Assembly (NCBI GenBank): GCA_030295235.1
Contig: AP026127.1
Span: forward strand, 248,001 to 312,000
DNA: 64,000 nucleotides
Source of the DNA: Fistulifera solaris
Taxonomy: Eukaryota
Reading direction: 5' to 3'
The position numbers and the translations under genes were made by a program. A model generated the notes under the pieces. The model was not told the origin of the DNA. It worked only from the letters and a program-made list of their open reading frames with translations, and did no database searches. Shown one piece after another: positions 15,743 to 31,107 of the stretch. Numbering within the stretch: position 1 is the stretch's first letter; each line of letters opens with the position of its first letter.

Positions 15743-16596
15743 AACGGGCGACGAGGCGACTCGTTTAGTTTGGCGAAAGTCTTCATATCGAAGTAATGCA
15801 TGACGGACTTACATAAAAGATTTCATATTGTTGAAGCTCCTTTAACATAGCTCGTCCGCGAAAAGGATTTAGGTATGCGGACCAGTAGCTCTTTTCTGTA
15901 GTAATTAGACCTATCAGTATTTGTTCTTTCCATTCGTTCGGTACCAAACCTCTCTTGCAACTAATACTTGATCAACGTTGCGATAACATGACGGTAATTC
16001 TCCGCTGCAACCTCTGTATAATGCACAAAAGCACGTTGTGATGCTTCTCTTTGCTACCAACACATCGTTTCATAATAAAGGTACCGGGTATCTGATTTCT
16101 TGGTAAGTTAGAGCGTATGAGCTCCGTTCCGTGATCGCGTGATCTTCCCGTCATCTTGGCAAGGGCTCAAGGAATCACGTCGTACCGGTGGTGACTCGTC
16201 GTCTTGCATTGAGCTTCAACATTTCGGAGAAGATTCTAGAGACGGCAGACATAGCAAAGTGCACGATCGACTATAGCCAGTAGCTCCCGATCAAGACACC
16301 AAACTTTGAAAAGCACTTGCGCAGTTGCAAGAACGGACCCAGAGCGGTGGAAAAGAAACACGATTCGTATTGCCTAAGTGATCCATACATCACCGAAAAG
16401 ACAGAATCCAACGAAATTCCATGAAATCGAAATACCAAGAAAAGAGAACCGTCTTTTTGATTCGACACGGGTTGATTGTTGAGAACTGCAAAAATGATCC
16501 CATTTCCCTCCTCTTATACACTCTCACAATATTGGATAGCATCCAGATACCATAAGAAACAGTAACAGAAACCAGTAAACAAACAGTAACATCACA

Positions 16597-18138
16597 ATGG
16601 CGCGACCTGATCAAGATAAACCGAAACCGAACATTGTCGACCAAGTCCGGGAAACAGTTTCGCATGTATTTGGCGGCGACAACCAAGGCGATAAAACCGT
16701 AACGGAAAGGACGGACGAGACCAAGGGAATGATTCAGGACAAGATGCCTTCCGGCACCACCACCACCAACGAGAAGACGATTGGCGACGCTACCCGCGAG
16801 AAGTACGAAGAACTGATGCAGAACGTTCAGAGCACATTGTCCGGCAACGCCAACAAGGATCTGGGTGACAAGACAGCGGACAAGTACCACGAGGGAAAGG
16901 GTGCGATCAAGGATACGTTCTCCTCGGGCGACAACAAAGATCTCGGCGACAAGGCTGCGGACAAGTACCATGAGGGCAAAGGAGCCGTTCAGGATATGGG
17001 CGACAAAGCCGCGGACAAGTACCAGCAAGGGAAAGAATCCATTCAGGATACGTACCAGCAAGGGAAAGACAAGTTCTCTGGTGAGAAGGACCTCGGCGAC
17101 AAGGCCGCTGACAAGTATCACCAGGGAAAAGGCTTCATCAAGGATACCTTACTCTCTGACGAAGGCAAGGATCTAGGTGACCGCACCGCCGACGCCTACC
17201 ACGGCACCAAGGGCATGGCCCAAGCCGCGGGTGACAAGATCGTTGGTGTCAAGGACTCGATCCAGGACAAGTTGCACCAGGGCATCGAAACGGTCCAAGA
17301 CACGCTGCACCAGAGCAAAGAGGCCGTTCAGGATCGATTGCATCAGGGCAAAGAGACAATTGTTGACAAGTACCAGCAGAGTAAAGAAGCTGCCGAGCAG
17401 AAGTACGAGCAGAGCAAGCAAGCCGCCCAGCAGACTTACGAGCAGGGAAAGGAAAAGGCTGTGCAAGGCAAAGACATGGCACAGGACAAGTTGCAACAAG
17501 GCAAAGAGATGGCCCAAGACAGGATGCAGCAAGGCAAGGAAATGGCTCAGGGCACCTACGAGCAGGGCAAGGACATGGCGCAACAGGGCAAAGAGACGGC
17601 TCAGGACAAGATGCAACAGGGAAAGGAAATGGCCCAAGACAAGTGGCAGCAGGGCAAGGACATGGCGCAACAGGGCAAAGAGACGGCTCAGGACAAGATG
17701 CAACAGGGAAAGGAAATGACCCAGGACAAGTGGCAGCAGGGCAAGGACATGGCGCAACAGGGCAAAGAGACGGCGCAGGACAAGATGCAGCAGGGAAAGG
17801 AGACTGCTCAGGACAAGTTTCAACAAGGAAAAGAAACTACCAAGGACAAGATGTCTTCCATGGGCGATAAAGCCAACCAGATGGGCGACAAAGCCAAGGA
17901 TACGTACCAGCAGGGCAAAGAAAAGACCCAGAGCAAGTTTTCGTCTCCTTCCGGCGGCTCCAGCGGCAGTCAGGATAAAGTGCCCGAAACGAGCGGAGTG
18001 ACCGTCAAGGTTATTGCCAATGACGACACGAATTTGGGTGACCAAGCCGGTGCGAAATTCAACGAGCTGAAAGGCAAGACCCACGCCGAGGACAAATTCT
18101 CTACTTACAAGGGAAACAATCCCGACAAGAAGTATTAA
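16597..18138 (+). CDS. Large group-3-LEA-like hydrophilin, MARPDQD family
   Basis: 513-aa ORF with 11-mer repeats (AQDKMQQGKEM type) and KDLGDKAADKYHxGK repeats. Confidence 0.85.
   Translation: MARPDQDKPKPNIVDQVRETVSHVFGGDNQGDKTVTERTDETKGMIQDKMPSGTTTTNEKTIGDATREKYEELMQNVQSTLSGNANKDLGDKTADKYHEGKGAIKDTFSSGDNKDLGDKAADKYHEGKGAVQDMGDKAADKYQQGKESIQDTYQQGKDKFSGEKDLGDKAADKYHQGKGFIKDTLLSDEGKDLGDRTADAYHGTKGMAQAAGDKIVGVKDSIQDKLHQGIETVQDTLHQSKEAVQDRLHQGKETIVDKYQQSKEAAEQKYEQSKQAAQQTYEQGKEKAVQGKDMAQDKLQQGKEMAQDRMQQGKEMAQGTYEQGKDMAQQGKETAQDKMQQGKEMAQDKWQQGKDMAQQGKETAQDKMQQGKEMTQDKWQQGKDMAQQGKETAQDKMQQGKETAQDKFQQGKETTKDKMSSMGDKANQMGDKAKDTYQQGKEKTQSKFSSPSGGSSGSQDKVPETSGVTVKVIANDDTNLGDQAGAKFNELKGKTHAEDKFSTYKGNNPDKKY
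17561..17820 (+). repeat. 87-bp coding tandem repeat, 3 copies
   Basis: Units start at 17561, 17648 and 17735 and encode QQGKDMAQQGKETAQDKMQQGKEMAQDKW (7+11+11 aa). Confidence 0.9.
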
Positions 18139-22069: not shown

Positions 22070-22744
22070 ATTGTTGTTGTTGTGTTAATCAAAAATGAAA
22101 ACGACTGATGTTATTGATTGCTTTCCTTTCAACAGCAACAACACACGCCCATTGCAAGTCTTTATTTTCGTTGTTGTTTCGACGCGAGGACGACGAGAAA
22201 AATACGCGTGTGCGACGAACTTCCATCGGATGGTTCGTTCATCAGCGATCAACGGAAAATTGTAATATAGTACAAATACTCATTATTATACGATCATGAA
22301 GACTATTCCATCATGACCTAGCTACTTAATTAACGGCTACCAAGCGAGCCAATCCCATACGGTACTAATATTTAGACAAGCTTCTTTCAACAACGGACAT
22401 GAAAAAAGCAAGATTGGATTTTAGTCACGGCCAGATAGTCATCACCTCCACGGCTTTTTTCTTCAACCCGTTTCTTCGTCCGCACCGACGAAGCTTTTTT
22501 TGTTGACACGCAACAACATTCCTTTTTCGAGGAACAACAAATAATACAATCGACAATTCCTAATATTATTGGTCTTTTTAGCTGCGCATTTACGCATCGC
22601 AGTCTTTCCTTTGTAACTTTCATTCAAGTTATAGAAAGATCAAGTTTGAGTGTGTTGAAGCTCGGAAAGAGAAAGCACAATCACTTCGAATCGCGTTTGA
22701 CGACAAAAATTGAAAGTTTCTTATCTTTCTTTTCTGTACAAACC

Positions 22745-25149
22745 ATGATTTCCCTCCAACGACTCCTCTTCATCGTCGGCGGGCTGTTTTGTATAGAGGT
22801 TTCAGCTTTATCCAGTACAACCATCAATCCGACCAGTCGCTTGCAAAAAGCACGATTACTGCTGGAAGAATACACTTCATCCGAAGCACTTTTACTCAAC
22901 AATACTGCTGCTGCGGAAGATACGTCCCCCAATGCCGTAGCATCTTCCGCCTGGCGGAATGGGCACCTTGTCGGCAATGATAAAGTCGTAACACGATGGT
23001 CGCAAGGCGTCCAAGTGGCGGAACCCGTCAAACGGTACGATCCCATATTGGCGCAACAACAACTTTTTCGTCAACCGACCAAATGGTTGGTTCGGAACGT
23101 CCAAATTGCTTGGCCATTGGGGTGGTGGGCGGTCGGTGTCATTACCGATTATGTCTTTCAAGAGAAAAACAATCGTCGGAAACGCGCCGAACAATTGCGG
23201 CAAGCCATTTCCAGTCTCGGGCCAGCCATTATCAAAGCCGGACAAGCCTTGAGCAGTCGTCCCGATTTGTTGCCGGCGGAATATTTGGAAGAATTGCAAA
23301 AATTACAAGATGATGTCCCGCGCTTTCCCAATGAAGTGGCCTTTCGGGTGGCCTGTGAGGAATTGGGCATTGACGATTTTGAAAGTGTCTTTTGTTGGAA
23401 CAAGAAGAACCTGTGGCGGCCGCGTCGATTGGGCAAGTCTATAAGGCGCGCTTGCAAGCCAATGGGGATGTCGTTGCCCTCAAGATTCAGCGACCCAATT
23501 GTGAACAAGTCATTGCTTTGGACTTGTACATTTTGCGATGGTGGAGTGGCGTATACAATCGCATTTTTCAAATATTGCAGCGTGATATTGACTTGCAAGC
23601 TGTGATGGATGATTTTGGGGAATTGATTTACCGTGAGATTGATTATATTGCGGAAATGTCCAATGCGCAACGCTTTCAGGAGCTCTATGCTGGAGTGCGG
23701 GATGTCTTTGTGCCCCGGGTGTATTCGGAATTGACGACGAGCAAAGTACTTACGATGGAGTGGGTGGATGGATTTCGTTTGACGGATCAAGACAGTTTAC
23801 AGAAGTATGGCCTCGATAAAAGTGCTCTGGTGGATACGTTGGTGCAGTGTACATTGAAACAGATTCTCGAAAATGGTCTTTTTCACGCTGATCCGCATGT
23901 ACGTTTGATGACTTTAGATTTGTTGTTACTTGCAAGCATATTTCCTAACCTTGCTGATATTTTCCTACCAACAGGCGGGAAACTTGCTGGCTACCCCCGA
24001 TGGACGCTTGTGTTATTTGGATTTCGGCATGATGAGTTATGCAGCACAAAATCAACGCAATGGATTCTTGTTAGCAGTCGTTCACATTGTCAACAGAGAT
24101 TGGGCGGCGCTGGTACAGCTGTACGTCCAACTTGGTTTCATTCCAGAGGGTACTGATTTGGAACCCATTCAAGTGGCGTTGGAGCGAGCACTCCCAGATG
24201 TGTTGAATGCAGATATTACCGAACTGAACTTTAAGAACGTCATTAACAAGTTGGGCGATGTAAGTGTGACACGAATCATTCGCTGTTCTCGGTCTGCCAT
24301 TCTCACATGCGCTTGACTCGCTCATCGAAGATCATGTACACGTATCCATTTTCACTGCCGCCTTTCTACATTGCCATTATTCGTTGTCTTGGTGTCTTGG
24401 AAGGGCTTGCTATTCAGGTTGATCCCAAGTCACGTATTATCAGTAAGGCTTATCCTTACATCGCGAGTCGGGTATTAACCGATCCCCAAGATCCACTCCA
24501 AGAAGCTTTCAAGAGACTAGCATTCACTCCTGAAGGATCCATTCGTACAGAACGGCTGGAGAGTTTGTTGGATCAAGCAAAAGACGCGTCTGGTTACGAT
24601 GTGACTGCTGCTTTGAACTTGTTGGTGGATAAGTACTTACTAGCGCCGGATTCCGATCGACTTCTGGAGCAAATGTCTGATCAAATTGTACAAGCAGTGG
24701 ATACTTTGGGCATGGAAACCGTTCAGTACCTGGCTAAAGCCGGCCAAGCGCTGGCCATCAATGATGAAGTCGCTGCTGTTCGTGCTTTTCGATCAATACA
24801 ACAGCTGCTGGATGCCAGAGTTCGAGCGGATAGCGAGGACGAGGGCGACTCGCCAAAATGGGAAACGTCTTTGGAACTGCCGGAAATGCCTCCAACTATG
24901 CGAAGGTCCCAGAAAATTCTTGACTTATTATTATCGCAATCGGCAGAAGGTAGCGATCCTGCCAAATTCGTTCCGCTCGTACGGAAACTAATACAAGACG
25001 AACGCATTAGGCGGTCAGCGCAGGATGTGGTGGCTCGTGTCGGTGAACGAGTTCTGAGCCGAAGCTTGCGAAGTACTTTTGGGCTACCGCCTCCTCTTTT
25101 TGGAAAAGCAAGCTCACTCTCCACCGTCACGGAAGACCGAGAGAAATAA
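22745..25149 (+). CDS. ABC1K/UbiB atypical kinase, probably plastid
   Basis: IKAGQALSSRPD, AAASIGQVY, VALKIQRP, FHADPH-AGN and LDFGM motifs. Introns 23899-23974 and 24260-24330. Frameshift in the T-run near 23390. Confidence 0.9.
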
Positions 25150-25653
25150 GAAATTGTTTAATAGATACAGTAAACGATTAATGGATCGTTCGATGTACTG
25201 ATAATGTTCTCGGATCGAGATACGCACTGCATTTTGGTTGATTGTTGTCTATGATTTGCGGTTACTCATCGGCGTAAAGCACATTGCCAGTGGTCGCGTG
25301 TCATAATATAATAGTAACCTTAGCTGCTTCTCTTGATACGGCCGACTCAATTGATGAAAGAATGTTTTTGCCCGACTCCTCTAAAGGGTTCGGACCCAGT
25401 AAATTTTACTTTTCGCGTCGTCACATCGAGAACGCGAAGTTGTTCTCATTTCCAGGAAGCAACCCCAAAGTTGCGAACTGGTCATGTGAGAACACTATCG
25501 ACGTTTCATTATGGATTCCATTTGATAAATAGGTCTGAATCATCCCAAAAGAGAGCACACCATCATTTTTGGGCTGTACGAAACGACAAGAAACCACAAG
25601 ATTCATTTGTTGAAATCGTTATAAGAGAAACGTAACCAGCGAAAAGTGCAATT

Positions 25654-27676
25654 ATGAGTGACAAAGAAAGTGAAAACATTGGCGAGGAGTCGGTCACCGA
25701 ATGCTGCAAAGCAGATGTGCCGACGGTGTCGGTCGTGGACGTTGAAATTCGTCAAAGAACGGAAACTGTTACTTTCCCCGCACGCGGAAGGAAAAGGGTT
25801 TCGACCCTCATGTCAAATACAAGCACTGAAAAGAGGGTCACCAGAGCGTCTCGTCGCTTGAAGGGGAACGAACCCTTGGAAGTGTCGGCTGATCGGAACG
25901 AAGAGGGAACTGGATTAGTTGACGACAGAAACGAGAAAGAAAAAAGCAGGCGCGCCCGACAGCGGGATAGACAGGGTTACGGAAGAGGTTTCCCGTGACG
26001 ACTCCTTGAAAAAGATTGCCGAAGAAGTGCCAGAATATGATTCTCAAAAGAAAAAAGCCAACACTCTTGCTCACGGGCTCGCAGGAATTACAGGAGAAGC
26101 GTCGAATGACAAGCGGGATGAGGAAACCGAAGATAGGTCAAATAAAGAGCCTGAAAAAGTGACCGCAGAAATGTCTGGTTACGAGAGCGATAAGGAAGCC
26201 GAAGAAATGGACATTGACGAGCCCGATAAGGAAACTGAAAACTTAGGTCAAGAGTCGGACGACTCGGAAAAGAGCAGTGAAGAAAAAGCCACAGAGAAGA
26301 CCAATCAGGCGAACGCAAAAGCAAATGAAAAGGTCTCGGATAAAGAGCCTGTCGAAATGGATTCCGAACAGCCGGACAATGGGATCGAAGGCATGTCGGA
26401 CGCAGAGAAGCCGTCAGGAACAACGGAGCACGAGAGTGCGAGCGGAGCAGCAACCATGGCAAATAACGAGCCGGAACAGGAAACGGGTAAGATACCGGGC
26501 AATGAGCCAGAAAAGAGGACTGAAGGAACATCTGTAAATAACAGCGAAGAGAGTGAAGTGTCAAAGAATGAGACCGAGCAAGAAAACGAAGTCTCGAGAA
26601 AGGATTTTCAAGCCAAAAATAGCAGTAGCGAAGAGAGTGAAGTGTCAGAGAATGAGATCGAACAGGGAAAAGAAGTCTCAAGAAAGGATTCTGAAGCCAA
26701 GGATACACAAAAGTCGGATAGCGAGAGCGAAGACCCGTCAGAAATTGAAGCTGAACAAGGAAAGGAAGCTTCCAGTCCCGAAAAGGCAAATTCAAAGCCT
26801 TCGGACGACAAAGACCCAATGCCAGATGATGAGGTTGATGAAGGATATAAGGTGTCAGAAAAGGGACTGGAACAGGGGACTACCGACGCACCAGAAGACA
26901 AGAATGAAGGCGCAGACACGTCTGATTACGAAAGCGCCAAGGAAACAGAGGAACTGTCCGACGAGGAGCCGGAGAAGACAGGAGAAGAGTCTGGTGAGAA
27001 GAGCGGAAAGGGAGCTGAAGAAATGTCAGAGAAAGCAAACGAACAAGAGAAGGAACTGTCAGACGAGGAGCGGGAGAAGAAAGCAGAAGAGTCTGGAGAG
27101 AAAAGCGGAACCGGAGAAATGTCGGAGAGAGAAAGTGAACAAGAGAATGACCCAATGGACGAGCAAGAGAGCAAGAACGAAGCAAGATCTGAAGACAAAA
27201 GCGCCAAGAAGTCACCCAGCTTCCCCAAGACCGAAAAGGGCACCGCGTCCAAAAAGGCCGCGAAAGTCACACCCGAAAGGCGTCCGTCGTTTGGAAAGCA
27301 CCGTGGATACGGAAAAGGTAAGGGAGGACGCGGAGCCCGTACCTCAATTAGTAGTTCGACCCGAGCCGGCTTGCAGTTCCCCGTCGGTCGCATCGGACGG
27401 TACTTGCGGGAGGGCAAATACGCGTCGCGCCTGGGCGCCGGGGCCCCGGTCTATCTCGCAGCCGTCTTGGAATACTTGTGCGCCGAAATCTTGGAATTGG
27501 CGGGGAATGCTTGTCGTGACAATAAAAAGACCCGAATCGCTCCCCGTCATATCACCTTAGCCGTGAAGAACGATGAAGAACTGAATGATTTGTTGGGCGA
27601 TGTGACGATTGCGTCGGGTGGCGTTTTGCCCAATATCAACCCTGTATTGTTACCCAAGAAGACTGTCATTTCGTAG
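25654..27676 (+). CDS. H2A: Histone H2A with very long acidic N-terminal extension (about 670 aa total)
   Basis: C-terminal canonical H2A fold [11 protein letters not shown]...[20 protein letters not shown]...[12 protein letters not shown], in frame with more than 450 codons of E/S/K/D-rich sequence. One frameshift in the A-run near 25940 links ORF 25654. Confidence 0.8.
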
Positions 27677-28115
27677 ATGAGCATTATTAAAAGCAACCCA
27701 TTTCTTTGTTTCGTCGATATTCGCAAGTGTAGGTAATAACGATCGAAAGAAGCCTGCGGCAAATAAATAATAGAATGCGCTGCAATGAGGTTCGGGATTA
27801 TGCCTTGGCTCCCTCCATGGGATACAACAGACACGAGGATCGGCAGAAACTTTGTTGATAATAACAAGAGAAATGAAGGGCTAAGAGCAAAGCGTGAAAT
27901 TTTCATTATGGCATGATGAAACGCAACACGCAACGTAAAGCGAGGGGCGAAAACAATAAAAATAAACCTACTGAACCCTAAAATTAACCCTACATCTCCT
28001 TATCCACTTTTCGCGTCGCTTGGCGGAGATCTCGTCCGGTGCTCAGGGGCGGTGCTGCTATTGTTATTCCTTTCGCATCTCTCATTTTCTCAATATTGTT
28101 TTCTTACAACGACAA

Positions 28116-28943
28116 TTACATGGATGGAACGCACTCACACGTTGCACCAGAGGGTGCGTAGTAGAGGGGGCAGCAGCAGCAGTTTACTCCACACTGCAAA
28201 CCTGTCTCGCCAGGGCAACAGGACAAACCTTGACAGGTCAGCCCATTCTCAAAACCAACACGTTCACAGGCGTCCTTCGTTTCATCACAAGCGAAATTAC
28301 CGATTCTGTTTTGCGTGATCACGATAGCGCCGATGGCAACGGCGGCCGTCGCCGCCAACACAGCTGCCGGCACGCCAGCAAACAAAGCGGCGGCCGCCAC
28401 GGCCAAGAGCTGTCGCCGGAAGAGTGCTCCCAAGACGGCTTCGAGAGCGGGAAGTAGAGCAAAAGCGTCGCTGCATAACGCTTCCAATTCTTTGCACTCA
28501 TCGATTGTGTTACACTCGGAATCACTGTTACCACACTGCGCAGCCACCGACAGAAAGTCCGGCTGTTTGGGAGTCGTATCCATGATAGCAACGCTAGCGT
28601 CACGCGCAGAGTTCGCCATAGCATAGTCCAACATTCCCTGGTAACAGATAGAGCCCGCGGACAAGGACGCTTCCGCGGCCGCAAGGAGGCTTACGCAAAC
28701 ATCTACGTCAAAATCATCGCCATTGGAAGCTGCCAGTTCCGTGCAGTTCACGTCAATGGCGAGACTTCCCACAATGTCCACTGCTCTGGTACGAGCTCCG
28801 AGAAATGAGGTGATGTTGTTCAGTTCACTTACGTCAAAGTCGCACTCCATGGTTCGAGCAAAGGCGGAAGCTTCGCCGGGAGAAGGTACGCCTGCAGGAG
28901 TCGCATCTCGGCACGGCAGTGGGAAAAGAGGAAAGAATGCCAT
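28116..28943 (-). CDS. Cys-rich hypothetical protein with an Ala-rich hydrophobic segment
   Basis: 275-aa ORF with aaaacATGG start context and a Cys-dense C-terminus (CC, CCCC). No family recognised. Confidence 0.6.
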   Translation of the reverse strand: MAFFPLFPLPCRDATPAGVPSPGEASAFARTMECDFDVSELNNITSFLGARTRAVDIVGSLAIDVNCTELAASNGDDFDVDVCVSLLAAAEASLSAGSICYQGMLDYAMANSARDASVAIMDTTPKQPDFLSVAAQCGNSDSECNTIDECKELEALCSDAFALLPALEAVLGALFRRQLLAVAAAALFAGVPAAVLAATAAVAIGAIVITQNRIGNFACDETKDACERVGFENGLTCQGLSCCPGETGLQCGVNCCCCPLYYAPSGATCECVPSM

Positions 28944-31107
28944 GTTTTGATCGATCTATTGCTTTATTCGGTGGCTTACGAAATACTTCGTACCGGATAT
29001 CTTGACCTTTAGATTGTGATGGTATGAGAAGAGAGGAGCCAGATAATCCAATGCAGCAAAATATTTGTGCACGTCTTTTTTTGTCGTTCATTTTTTCATT
29101 CACGAAGGTCCTGCTTCCGAATTCTGCAAAGTGCTTGTAACTTGTACCTTGTACGGAGTAATTTGTAAATACGTGGTAGTACATTAGACGGTCCCTGTTG
29201 CATCCATTGTTAATTAGTACAATACAGGAAAGGACATTGAAGTTCTGACTCCAGTACAAAATCTACGTAGCAAGTAGTGTGAAAACGACGAACGACGTTG
29301 CAAGTTGTATTAGGTATTAGTAAGTTGATAAGTAATAATCCGTGGTTGGTACTTCGTACAAGTACCAGGTACTAAGGTTCTAGTATCATACGCTGTAGGC
29401 TGTAGACTAGGGTTTCTAGTTCCAGGATTAAAGGTTAAAATAACAATGGATAATGGAATAATGGATAACAGATACAAGTATTGGGATAATGGATTCCAGA
29501 TTTCCAGATTGCAGCAGCTTTTATTTGCAGGATCCGTTATTAGTTCTTATTATTTATGCCTGACGCCTGAAACTGACACTGACATCTGACATCTAAGAAA
29601 AATCAAATAATGAAATTGGTAATTGGTTATTGGCTTATCGGCTTGGTGCTGATGCTGATGATAGATGATACTAAGTACGGAGTGTAAAGTTGTCTGCAGC
29701 GTGCAGAATGCAGCATTATTTATTGTATTCTATTTATTTTACCTATTTCCTCGATAGTACTAAGCACGGTACCGCTTTCTTCCACCGACTTCACCTCTCC
29801 CGTTTGCACTCTGCAGTACACTACATCGGGTATCGGGTTATATCGGGTACCAGTAGCATGTGCTCTTAGAAGCTTCAGGGTCACGGGATTCCATTATCGA
29901 TTCCATTCATGAATCGTTCTCATTATTTTTTATTTGAGAACTCCGTTCTATTTATATCATTTATCTTTTCCATTTTCCATCGTAGCCTTTTTTCATTCCT
30001 GTGATCACAATAACTTGACTCACACTTTACGTCTAAAAAGATGGAAATGAGTAGATAGTTTCGTTCGTGATACGTGATACGAGACTCGTGACACGAATTC
30101 ACGGATTACGGATGATTGTCGAGTGTCGAGCCATTCGTTTTATAATTTGCAACCCGCTAAGTACTACGGAGTACCTAGTATATCTTAAATCAAAAGATTT
30201 AAGCCACTAGCCACGTCAGTCTAAGATCGGTTTGATCTGTGCTCTGCGACTGCGACCTGCGGACTTGGAGGTTTGTGGCTTGTGGCGTTTTTGCGTCACA
30301 GTGCGTGCGGCGCCTGAGTTCCGAGGGCTAAAGGTTATCCGCAATTCGCCAACGAGCTACAGCGTCAATGATTTAACTCCAATCTCTGCTAGCTGCTTGC
30401 CGAGAACGAGTCATGAGCAGTTATGATATCATTTTAGTTCTCAATATTTTGAGTCAATAGAGATTAGACGAATTCTATGTGTATGCATCATCAATGAGGT
30501 CCCATGGGGACGATTCCAAATTGGGAGCGAAGACTAATATCCGAAGATTGATAGGAAGATTCTCACCCGGCAACTTAGATCCGTCTTGCCAATAGGATCA
30601 TAGTCATTCATTGAACGACTGCGCATACATCGAATGTTGCAAAGCACGCTTCAATCTAGTCTGTTCGGTTGATTGTAGATTGTAGCTCAAGAATCGTGGC
30701 TAAATAGCGAAGGACCGTGAACGACCAGCTACCAGGTATGATACGTCGTACGGAGTACTATTGTTTTAAACGTGGAAGTTACTGTACGGTTAACCTTCAA
30801 AATGGTAACAACGGAAAGAAAATAGATTGATATTTAAAGTAAAAGATTTCTGTTCAAAATATTTCGAATAAATTAGCTACTTTATTCTTGTAGAGTTCTT
30901 TCCTTTTAAAAACGTGGATTTTTTTGCTTGACTTCGACGGCAATCGATACGTCACACCATCTCAAATCGCGACCCTTCCATCCGCATCCCGCAGCAATGC
31001 ATTTCACACTGCATCATTGTTCGTATTCTACTGTTGTGTAGTTGTAATCCAACTACAATTGATTAAGCATATTTCCAGTTGATTCTAATAAACAACGGGT
31101 TCATAAA

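Follow-up and report, generated by a model that had tools for sequence, protein, structure and literature searches.

This study describes a nuclear gene of the diatom Fistulifera solaris that probably, though we say so without great confidence, encodes one translated fusion protein in which a histone H2A follows a giant acidic N-terminal extension. The gene lies on the plus strand of a 64,000-nucleotide stretch (contig AP026127.1 of assembly GCA_030295235.1, positions 248,001 to 312,000 of the forward strand), which we call the window and whose own numbering is used throughout. As assembled, the window contains a stop-to-stop frame of 585 codons at 25919-27676 (its translation is referred to as P0001) that closes with the TAG at 27674-27676, and the last ~120 residues of this frame are histone H2A. 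When a run of six A close to the beginning of the frame is read with five, as in a contig of a public run, the ATG at 25654 leads into the long frame and gives 97 + 576 = 673 codons, a protein of 73.5 kDa with an isoelectric point of 4.57. The parts of the gene are listed in Table 1.

Table 1. Features of the putative fused H2A gene, in window coordinates
Feature	Positions	Strand	Remarks
Putative initiator ATG	25654..25656	+	First ATG past the in-frame TAA at 25633-25635, 6 codons downstream
N-terminal head, 97 codons	25654..25944	+	Mixed charge (net -2); basic clusters including RGRKR
A-run	25940..25945	+	6 A as assembled; one A fewer in an X1 contig
Acidic Ser-rich tract	25946..27154	+	Predicted disordered; orphan in searches
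In-frame tandem duplication, 84-bp (28-codon) unit	26543..26710	+	SEESEVS.NE.EQ..EVSRKD; pN/pS 0.48
Second in-frame duplication	26949..27116	+	Spacing 102, 88% identity; pN/pS 0.35
Linker from the last in-frame ATG (27155)	27155..27310	+	Acidic start, then basic and K/S/P-rich
H2A proper	27311..27673	+	GKGKGGRG tail, helices as expected, acidic patch, docking domain to LLPKK, tail TVIS
Stop codon TAG	27674..27676	+	

Results

Coding potential of the extension

An indication that the region upstream of the histone is coding comes from the frame itself. Between 25946 and 27286 there is no stop in 447 codons, with 5 and 41 stops in the other forward frames and 4 to 12 in the reverse frames. None of 2000 dinucleotide-preserving shuffles was stop-free (mean ~15 stops), indicating that the low T content (12.6%) alone is insufficient to produce such an open frame. 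The codon-position bias is strong (G 0.48 at position 1, A 0.52 at position 2), and every repeat spacing in the extension is a multiple of three. An initial annotation made from the sequence had reported an 84-bp unit at 26543 and 26627 and a second repeat pair in this tract. Both are recovered here, the former by Tandem Repeats Finder at 26543-26700 (period 84, 1.9 copies, 87% matches) and the latter as two 66-nt copies at 26949-27014 and 27051-27116. The ratio of nonsynonymous to synonymous differences per site (pN/pS) between duplicate copies is 0.48 over 28 codons and 0.35 over 21 codons, both of which are small samples. We read these features as signs that the extension is translated in this frame now or was until very recently.

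The same annotation described the frame as running free of stops upstream of the histone and placed basic motifs resembling nuclear localisation signals at its far N-terminus. The first statement holds back to 25919, but in the assembled sequence the head with its ATG at 25654 is in another frame. Likewise, the motifs RGRKR and KRVTRASRR are present, but as assembled they belong to that other frame (ORF, or open reading frame, 25636-25998). By their sequence these basic clusters look like nuclear localisation signals. The long frame itself holds in-frame ATGs at 26171, 26207, 26357, 26393, 26456, 26819, 27023, 27119 and 27155.

Contigs over the frameshift and the junction

Contigs of four public runs (X1-X4) were aligned to 23300-29000 of the window. 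The head frame and the long frame overlap at 25919-25998, around the A-run at 25940-25945, a place that the initial annotation had singled out for a check against reads. The X1 contig that covers 25481-26172 omits one base at 25940 (depth 16.3 of 16.3), and with this one A fewer the two frames are joined into a single ORF. Run X1 resembles genomic DNA from the same strain, since its contigs extend over introns and intergenic DNA and, of the 37 aligned, 22 match the window at 99% identity or more. It is possibly the sample behind the window assembly, and the correction of the A-run is read-derived and not fully independent. Another X1 contig of 1475 nt extends from 26149 to 27623 with 0 differences; it runs through the acidic tract and linker and across most of the fold, and so speaks against a chimeric join.

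A discrepancy of the same type is found in the upstream gene, where an extra T after 23389 is present in all three runs that cover the site (X1 53 of 53, X3 10.6 of 10.6, X4 6.98 of 6.98). This is probably a second homopolymer-type error of the window, and it would account for the overlapping ORFs 22439-23605 and 23383-24156. The discrepancies at 25940 and 23389 indicate that the window assembly is prone to such errors. Run X1 also holds a diverged second version of the flanks, with 29 differences in 379 nt (24240-24618) and 51 in 651 nt (28116-28766); in this version 394 other letters stand in place of the 376 nt at 27739-28116, and 5 nt are deleted at 27687. These diverged flanks suggest that there are two haplotypes or homeologues, which differ by ~7-8%. 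Among the X1 contigs, none aligned at 90% identity or above as a second version of 25592-27310.

The H2A fold

The histone part of the frame is recognised by two Pfam families, PF00125 Histone at P0001 residues 439-550 (E 3.2e-11, 44 bits, cut-off 26.4) and PF16211 Histone_H2A_C at residues 553-582 (E 1.4e-17, 63.6 bits, cut-off 20). The AGLQFPV motif, the acidic-patch residues (E in LEY, AEILE, NDEEL) and the LLPKK docking end are all present, and in a 34-sequence alignment of diatom-type H2As the acidic-patch residues and LLPKK sit in invariant columns. These results bear out the earlier description of an intact H2A fold with an acidic patch, and also that of a protein without the SQ tail of H2A.X. 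The consensus of the diatom-type relatives has an SQ near the C-terminus; the window protein ends in LLPKKTVIS, four residues past LLPKK, and so lacks the C-terminal SQ[E/D][F/Y] of H2A.X. Neither does the fold carry the LEYLTAEVLELAGNA signature of H2A.Z; it reads as the canonical diatom type. In the available text of PMC12459048, H2A.Z is marked out by the LEYLTAEVLELAGNA signature, by one extra residue inserted in L1 and by a docking domain that is shorter by one residue.

The closest relatives of the fold are canonical or H2A.X-type diatom H2As, and the nearest named proteins include those of Striatella, Cylindrotheca, Fragilariopsis, a Bacillariaceae metagenome-assembled genome and Skeletonema. 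The fold is 83-89% identical to the named diatom H2As over ~83% of the query, and no protein identical to it is on record. At well-conserved sites it carries seven changes that are absent from 107 relatives, namely Q42E, M49L, A76C, V85A, K101D, H118N and A119P. The site of A76C is Ala in 100% of these relatives; the other invariant structural positions and the acidic patch are kept. Against the nearest metagenome loci pN is 0.07-0.08 with pS saturated (0.75-0.99), and this saturation precludes a lineage-specific dN/dS estimate (nonsynonymous to synonymous substitution rates). The median dN between the fold and the loci is 0.10, and 0.054 among the loci. Judged by these comparisons, the fold is a long-constrained sequence with mildly accelerated change. 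The same organism probably also has a canonical H2A paralogue: an X1 contig with a loose end at 27510 and a 41-nt piece from X4 carry paralogue sequence reading NAARDNKK.

The start site in related H2A loci

There is no ATG directly before GKGKGGRG, in agreement with the initial annotation, and the nearest in-frame Met, estimated there at about 50 codons upstream, is the ATG at 27155, 52 codons before this motif. For comparison, the upstream frames were walked in the 80 best metagenome loci that encode close relatives of the fold. An ATG lies no more than 26 codons from the aligned fold in 64 of the 80; of the remaining 16, 14 have no in-frame upstream ATG, and two (L009 and L017) have one only 50 codons up. 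Fifteen loci, comprising 13 of the 14 without an ATG together with L009 and L012, were inspected for introns, and in 11 of them a tiny first exon carries the ATG, with the pattern ATG TCN G^GTAAG (or GTACG) ... AG^GA AAA GGA, where ^ marks the splice sites. The intron behind this first exon thus accounts for the missing ATG in 11 of the 15 inspected loci. It is a phase-1 intron directly past ATG TCN G in L051, L009, L037, L074, L072, L078, L079, L065, L071, L004 and L005. A diatom-like H2A initiator on such a first exon of 7 nt (or slightly longer) is easily missed by gene callers.

At the equivalent place the window reads ...CGTGGATAC followed by GGAAAAGGTAAGGGAGGA, with neither an ATG nor an AG acceptor, and the linker ends in HRGY at the position of M-S in canonical genes. 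The sole nearby upstream AG (27297-27298) would demand a phase-0 first exon, which is without precedent. Since both the ATG and the acceptor are lacking, the fold is translatable only as a continuation of the upstream frame, and translation would start at 25654 or at an internal ATG. At none of the 80 related loci is there a comparable extension; their open upstream frames reach 90 codons at most, and this longest one is not acidic. Neither is there any match to the linker among these loci, all alignments beginning at query residue 53 or later.

Composition and predicted structure

The region 25946-27286 encodes 22% E, 12.5% S, 11.4% K and 8.5% D, and leucine makes up only 1.6% of the extension. 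The net charge is ~-77 over residues 51-400 of the 585-codon frame (350 residues). An AlphaFold model of P0001 has no secondary structure in residues 1-478, and its helices at 479-482, 489-497, 509-534, 542-550 and 553-558 follow the expected H2A pattern. Confidence in this model is low (mean predicted local distance difference test 46, predicted template modelling score 0.26), its alignment informs the fold only, and it is inadequate for a fold search; it was used solely for the missing secondary structure of the extension and the helix positions in the fold. Pfam recognises no family in residues 1-438 of P0001, nor in the 114-residue ORF that contains the head; the 97-codon head, which was compared against Pfam only, is likewise without a match. 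The possibility that the head is a targeting presequence was rejected, as by eye it is hydrophilic and has no hydrophobic stretch like that of a signal peptide. Sites of the form [ST][DE].[DE] are mildly enriched in the extension (14, where shuffles average 7.5 and 19 in 1000 reach 14). The 28 CK2-type sites [ST]..[DE] show no enrichment beyond composition (229 of 1000 shuffles reach 28), and neither do S/T-P sites in the shuffle test. From their sequence, the acidic Ser clusters are candidate phosphorylation sites. The linker, whose basic part is ~50 residues long, contains two S/T-P sites and the stretches KKSPSFPK and KVTPERRPS.

Searches for relatives of the fusion

With the extension as query, 7999 scored candidates of 321-1024 residues yielded no homologue at E <= 0.01, and 1.84 billion representative proteins, scanned with HMMER in filter-only mode, yielded none at E <= 0.001. 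Searches with the fold left out protein lengths of 227-320 residues. In the best 120 of 1070 long fold-bearing proteins (321-1024 residues), the named ones are from animals, plants and green algae, many are concatenated models of histone clusters, and none exceeds 80% identity. The bit scores of diatom-type folds are 212-219, and no such fold occurs in these best 120. The ESM Atlas returned only plain H2A clusters at 0.84-0.85, below threshold. Among the long proteins there are four metagenome ORFs of mixed build. Two, P0037 (395 residues) and P0069 (324 residues), have an H2A fold on the C-terminal side after ~210-240 non-histone residues without a Pfam family, and the other two, P0075 (444 residues) and P0101 (515 residues), have an H2A fold after an H2B-like fold in one frame. 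Judging from their sequences, these four may be genuine fusion proteins, or else products of gene callers reading through on contigs of eukaryotes or viruses. Literature searches on diatom and stramenopile H2A, taken without supplementary tables, which possibly list odd gene models, brought up no account of an N-terminally extended or acidic form. The available text of the Phaeodactylum histone inventory speaks of 'two variants' of H2A and mentions no giant form (PMC4504042).

RNA-type runs and genomic context

Among public runs, none recorded as RNA contains this stretch; by their behaviour, X3 and X4 are RNA. In the upstream gene they show splicing of the GT..AG kind (23898/23975 and 24259/24331), and at 27957 they have a loose end of poly-T. 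The two introns of this upstream plus-strand gene, 76 nt (23899-23974) and 71 nt (24260-24330), are spliced out in X3 contigs, and the poly-T end is the poly(A) site of a minus-strand cysteine-rich ORF at 28116-28955. The X3 and X4 contigs give no usable cover of 25210-27300 and are uninformative either way on expression of the fused gene. Over the fold they yield the 41-nt piece (27470-27510, 4 mismatches), which is probably from the canonical paralogue. A low-depth X3 fragment touches 27088-27108 and 27191-27237, with 21 letters on one side, too short to bridge. Run X2, probably DNA, contributes a perfect 189-nt contig at 27738-27926, downstream of the stop.

Two explanations of the locus from its surroundings were rejected. 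A histone-cluster context finds no support, as the window contains no other H2A and the genes around the locus are ordinary, among them those for an EF-hand/DHH/CBS protein, an ABC1 kinase, a RING protein and a methyltransferase. Capture by a transposon was dismissed because no direct or inverted flanking repeats occur in 23000-30500. Elsewhere in the window, a 519-codon open frame at 16579-18138, overlapped by several other long frames on either strand, matches the LEA_4 repeat weakly and below threshold (26 bits, cut-off 51.1); from its sequence it may be another gene for a low-complexity repeat protein.

Discussion

The fused frame, if translated from 25654, would yield a four-part protein of ~673 residues, consisting of a head with basic clusters, a disordered acidic tract of ~400 residues, a K/S/P linker of ~50 residues and a diatom-type H2A. 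The acidic tract would have grown partly through in-frame tandem duplication. The origin of such a gene is most likely recent and confined to this lineage. We suppose that the ATG and 5' intron of an H2A copy were lost and that this copy came to form the 3' end of a fast-evolving acidic ORF lying upstream, either via fusion or through growth of the ORF. The initial annotation had offered a self-chaperoning or chromatin-loosening H2A variant or a recent fusion as its explanation. The structural side of that proposal is supported by the open frame, the codon bias, the duplications with pN/pS below 1, the bridging contig, and the missing canonical ATG and intron acceptor. That the extension is without relatives also agrees with a recent fusion.

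How such a protein might act can be proposed by analogy. The H2A part would pair with H2B, dock on H3-H4 and enter nucleosomes, and the basic head may serve nuclear import. The polyanionic N-tail would then project from the nucleosome surface and mimic DNA. Before deposition it could mask the side of its own H2A-H2B dimer that binds DNA, and so act as a built-in chaperone; in chromatin it could repel DNA, compete for H4 tails, basic histone tails and linker histone, and so oppose compaction. Taken by itself, this mechanism of a tail acting as DNA mimic or built-in chaperone is a tentative proposal that we hold to be rather doubtful. We regard with similar reserve, as a speculation more apt to fail than to hold, the wider idea that the product is a nucleosomal H2A with a covalent, phosphorylatable, disordered polyanionic arm of ~60 kDa, the first giant N-terminally extended H2A, marking a special chromatin state.

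Several observations weigh against the reading of one fused, translated gene. The window as assembled carries a frameshift, and its correction comes from one contig of a run that may be of the same sample. The case for the fused gene is made from sequence. The orphan extension, absent from all 80 related loci, offers no cross-species conservation to prove function. In addition, when the fold is ranked with its 107 relatives, its identity to the consensus (82%) is third from the bottom among the 108 sequences, and its unique changes (A76C, K101D, H118N and A119P) would fit specialisation or relaxed constraint alike. In a rival reading that we consider unlikely, the chimera is young and either non-functional or hardly expressed, a start-less H2A duplicate in frame behind an acidic ORF and now decaying. 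Birth and death of histone gene duplicates are common, and a fusion found nowhere else, a frameshift in the assembled sequence and a fold more diverged than its relatives would all suit such a history. However, the read-derived version is stop-free for ~2 kb, the invariant structural positions are kept except at A76C, and the internal repeats have pN/pS below 1. Another possibility is that only or mainly a short product is made, with transcription beginning inside the acidic tract and translation at 27155 (or at 27119 or 27023). Such a product would be an H2A of ~173 residues with a basic, SPKK-like N-tail of ~50 residues, comparable to the brown-algal variant H2A.N, and the upstream ORF would be a 5' leader or a separate feature. 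In-frame ATGs do exist at these three places, the linker past 27155 resembles a histone tail, and modest extensions of the H2A N-tail are known in stramenopiles, as described in the available text of PMC12459048. We nevertheless find a short product quite unlikely, for it leaves unexplained the 447-codon stop-free frame matched by none of the 2000 shuffles, the codon-position bias, a first ATG 6 codons past the upstream stop, and the lack of any stop between tract and fold. Moreover, the upstream part, if translated, runs into the fold, and long and short isoforms could coexist.

The two remaining rivals concern the gene model and the assembly. Introns might remove or reframe part of the acidic tract and leave a much smaller product or two products, as introns of 71-76 nt occur in the upstream neighbour and donor-like GTAAG or GTGAG sequences lie at 26487, 26994 and 27318. 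We believe a spliced model to be very unlikely, since a frame that is open throughout does not call for an intron, the GGTAAG at 27318 supplies the codons for the conserved G-K in the H2A tail, and no spliced contig over the gene was seen in the aligned runs. As for an assembly error in which an acidic gene and an H2A gene were wrongly joined, the homopolymer-type errors at 25940 and 23389 lend it some colour, but the 1475-nt X1 contig crosses the junction without a difference, even if the raw data are possibly shared, and we consider this explanation extremely improbable. A translated H2A with a giant acidic extension is the reading that we favour, with the reserve expressed above.

Core histones are among the most constrained of proteins, and large additions to them are rare (macroH2A, H2A.Y and the long tails of centromeric H3, CenH3), each having been instructive about chromatin. 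If the favoured reading is true, ~540 extra N-terminal residues with a net charge near -80 would give the nucleosome surface a DNA-like polyanion and amount to a natural experiment in how nucleosome charge governs compaction, tail binding and histone chaperoning. It would mean that an arm-bearing H2A originated in a single diatom lineage, whether by fusion or de novo, a clean case of very recent fusion or de novo sequence birth on an ancient fold. The special state marked by such a histone might be, for example, permanently open chromatin or the exclusion of linker histone and histone tails. If the gene is silent, the locus would be a curiosity of histone gene turnover only, and its interest therefore hinges on expression.

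In comparison with known systems, the window protein belongs to the H2A family by every feature that can be tested in sequence, and it lacks the defining features of H2A.X, H2A.Z, macroH2A, H2A.N and H2A.Y. The premise of the initial annotation that extended H2A variants carry their additions only at the C-terminus is incomplete, given H2A.N, the H2A of cryptophyte nucleomorphs and Tetrahymena H2A.Y, in which the leucine-rich-repeat domain is N-terminal. With macroH2A the window protein shares the combination of an H2A fold and a large non-histone part, in other words a giant H2A. However, the macro domain of macroH2A is folded, C-terminal and ancient, whereas the window extension is N-terminal, disordered, acidic and orphan, and Pfam finds no macro domain in the window protein. 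Brown-algal H2A.N has an N-tail ~30 residues longer, with a QSLRA alpha-N motif and a PLRP motif (PMC12459048, available text). Like the window protein it is a stramenopile H2A variant with a longer N-tail, for which that text reports no reliable AlphaFold structure, but its ~30 residues contrast with an acidic extension of ~540, and by eye both QSLRA and PLRP are absent from the window translation. Tetrahymena H2A.Y, as the available text of PMC3380720 describes it, has a leucine-rich-repeat domain and a phosphatase-regulating activity, and thus is also an H2A variant with a large non-histone domain. In the window extension Pfam detects neither a leucine-rich-repeat family nor any other domain at E <= 0.01. 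The N-terminal extension of the cryptophyte nucleomorph H2A consists, according to excerpts of PMC5443833, of a signal peptide along with a sequence resembling a transit peptide; the likeness lies in an H2A with an N-terminal extension, and the difference in the head of the window protein, which by eye is hydrophilic. Among the other core histones, Arabidopsis H2B.8 is similarly distinguished by an extended N-terminal region, which alters its nuclear distribution and is linked to chromocentre association and compaction (PMC11351261, in part). Unlike the window protein it is an H2B, and its extension is much shorter and has a conserved domain. A parallel in composition is offered by the acidic intrinsically disordered regions of Npm2 and Nap1, which the available text of PMC10987829 presents as DNA-mimicking elements with charge-based binding to histones and which, like the window extension, are long E/D/S-rich tracts. 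Pfam finds no folded core of a chaperone family (nucleoplasmin, NAP and others) in the window protein. In Npm2 and Nap1 these tracts belong to separate chaperones with folded cores, whereas in the putative fused protein described here the tract would be covalently joined to the histone itself.

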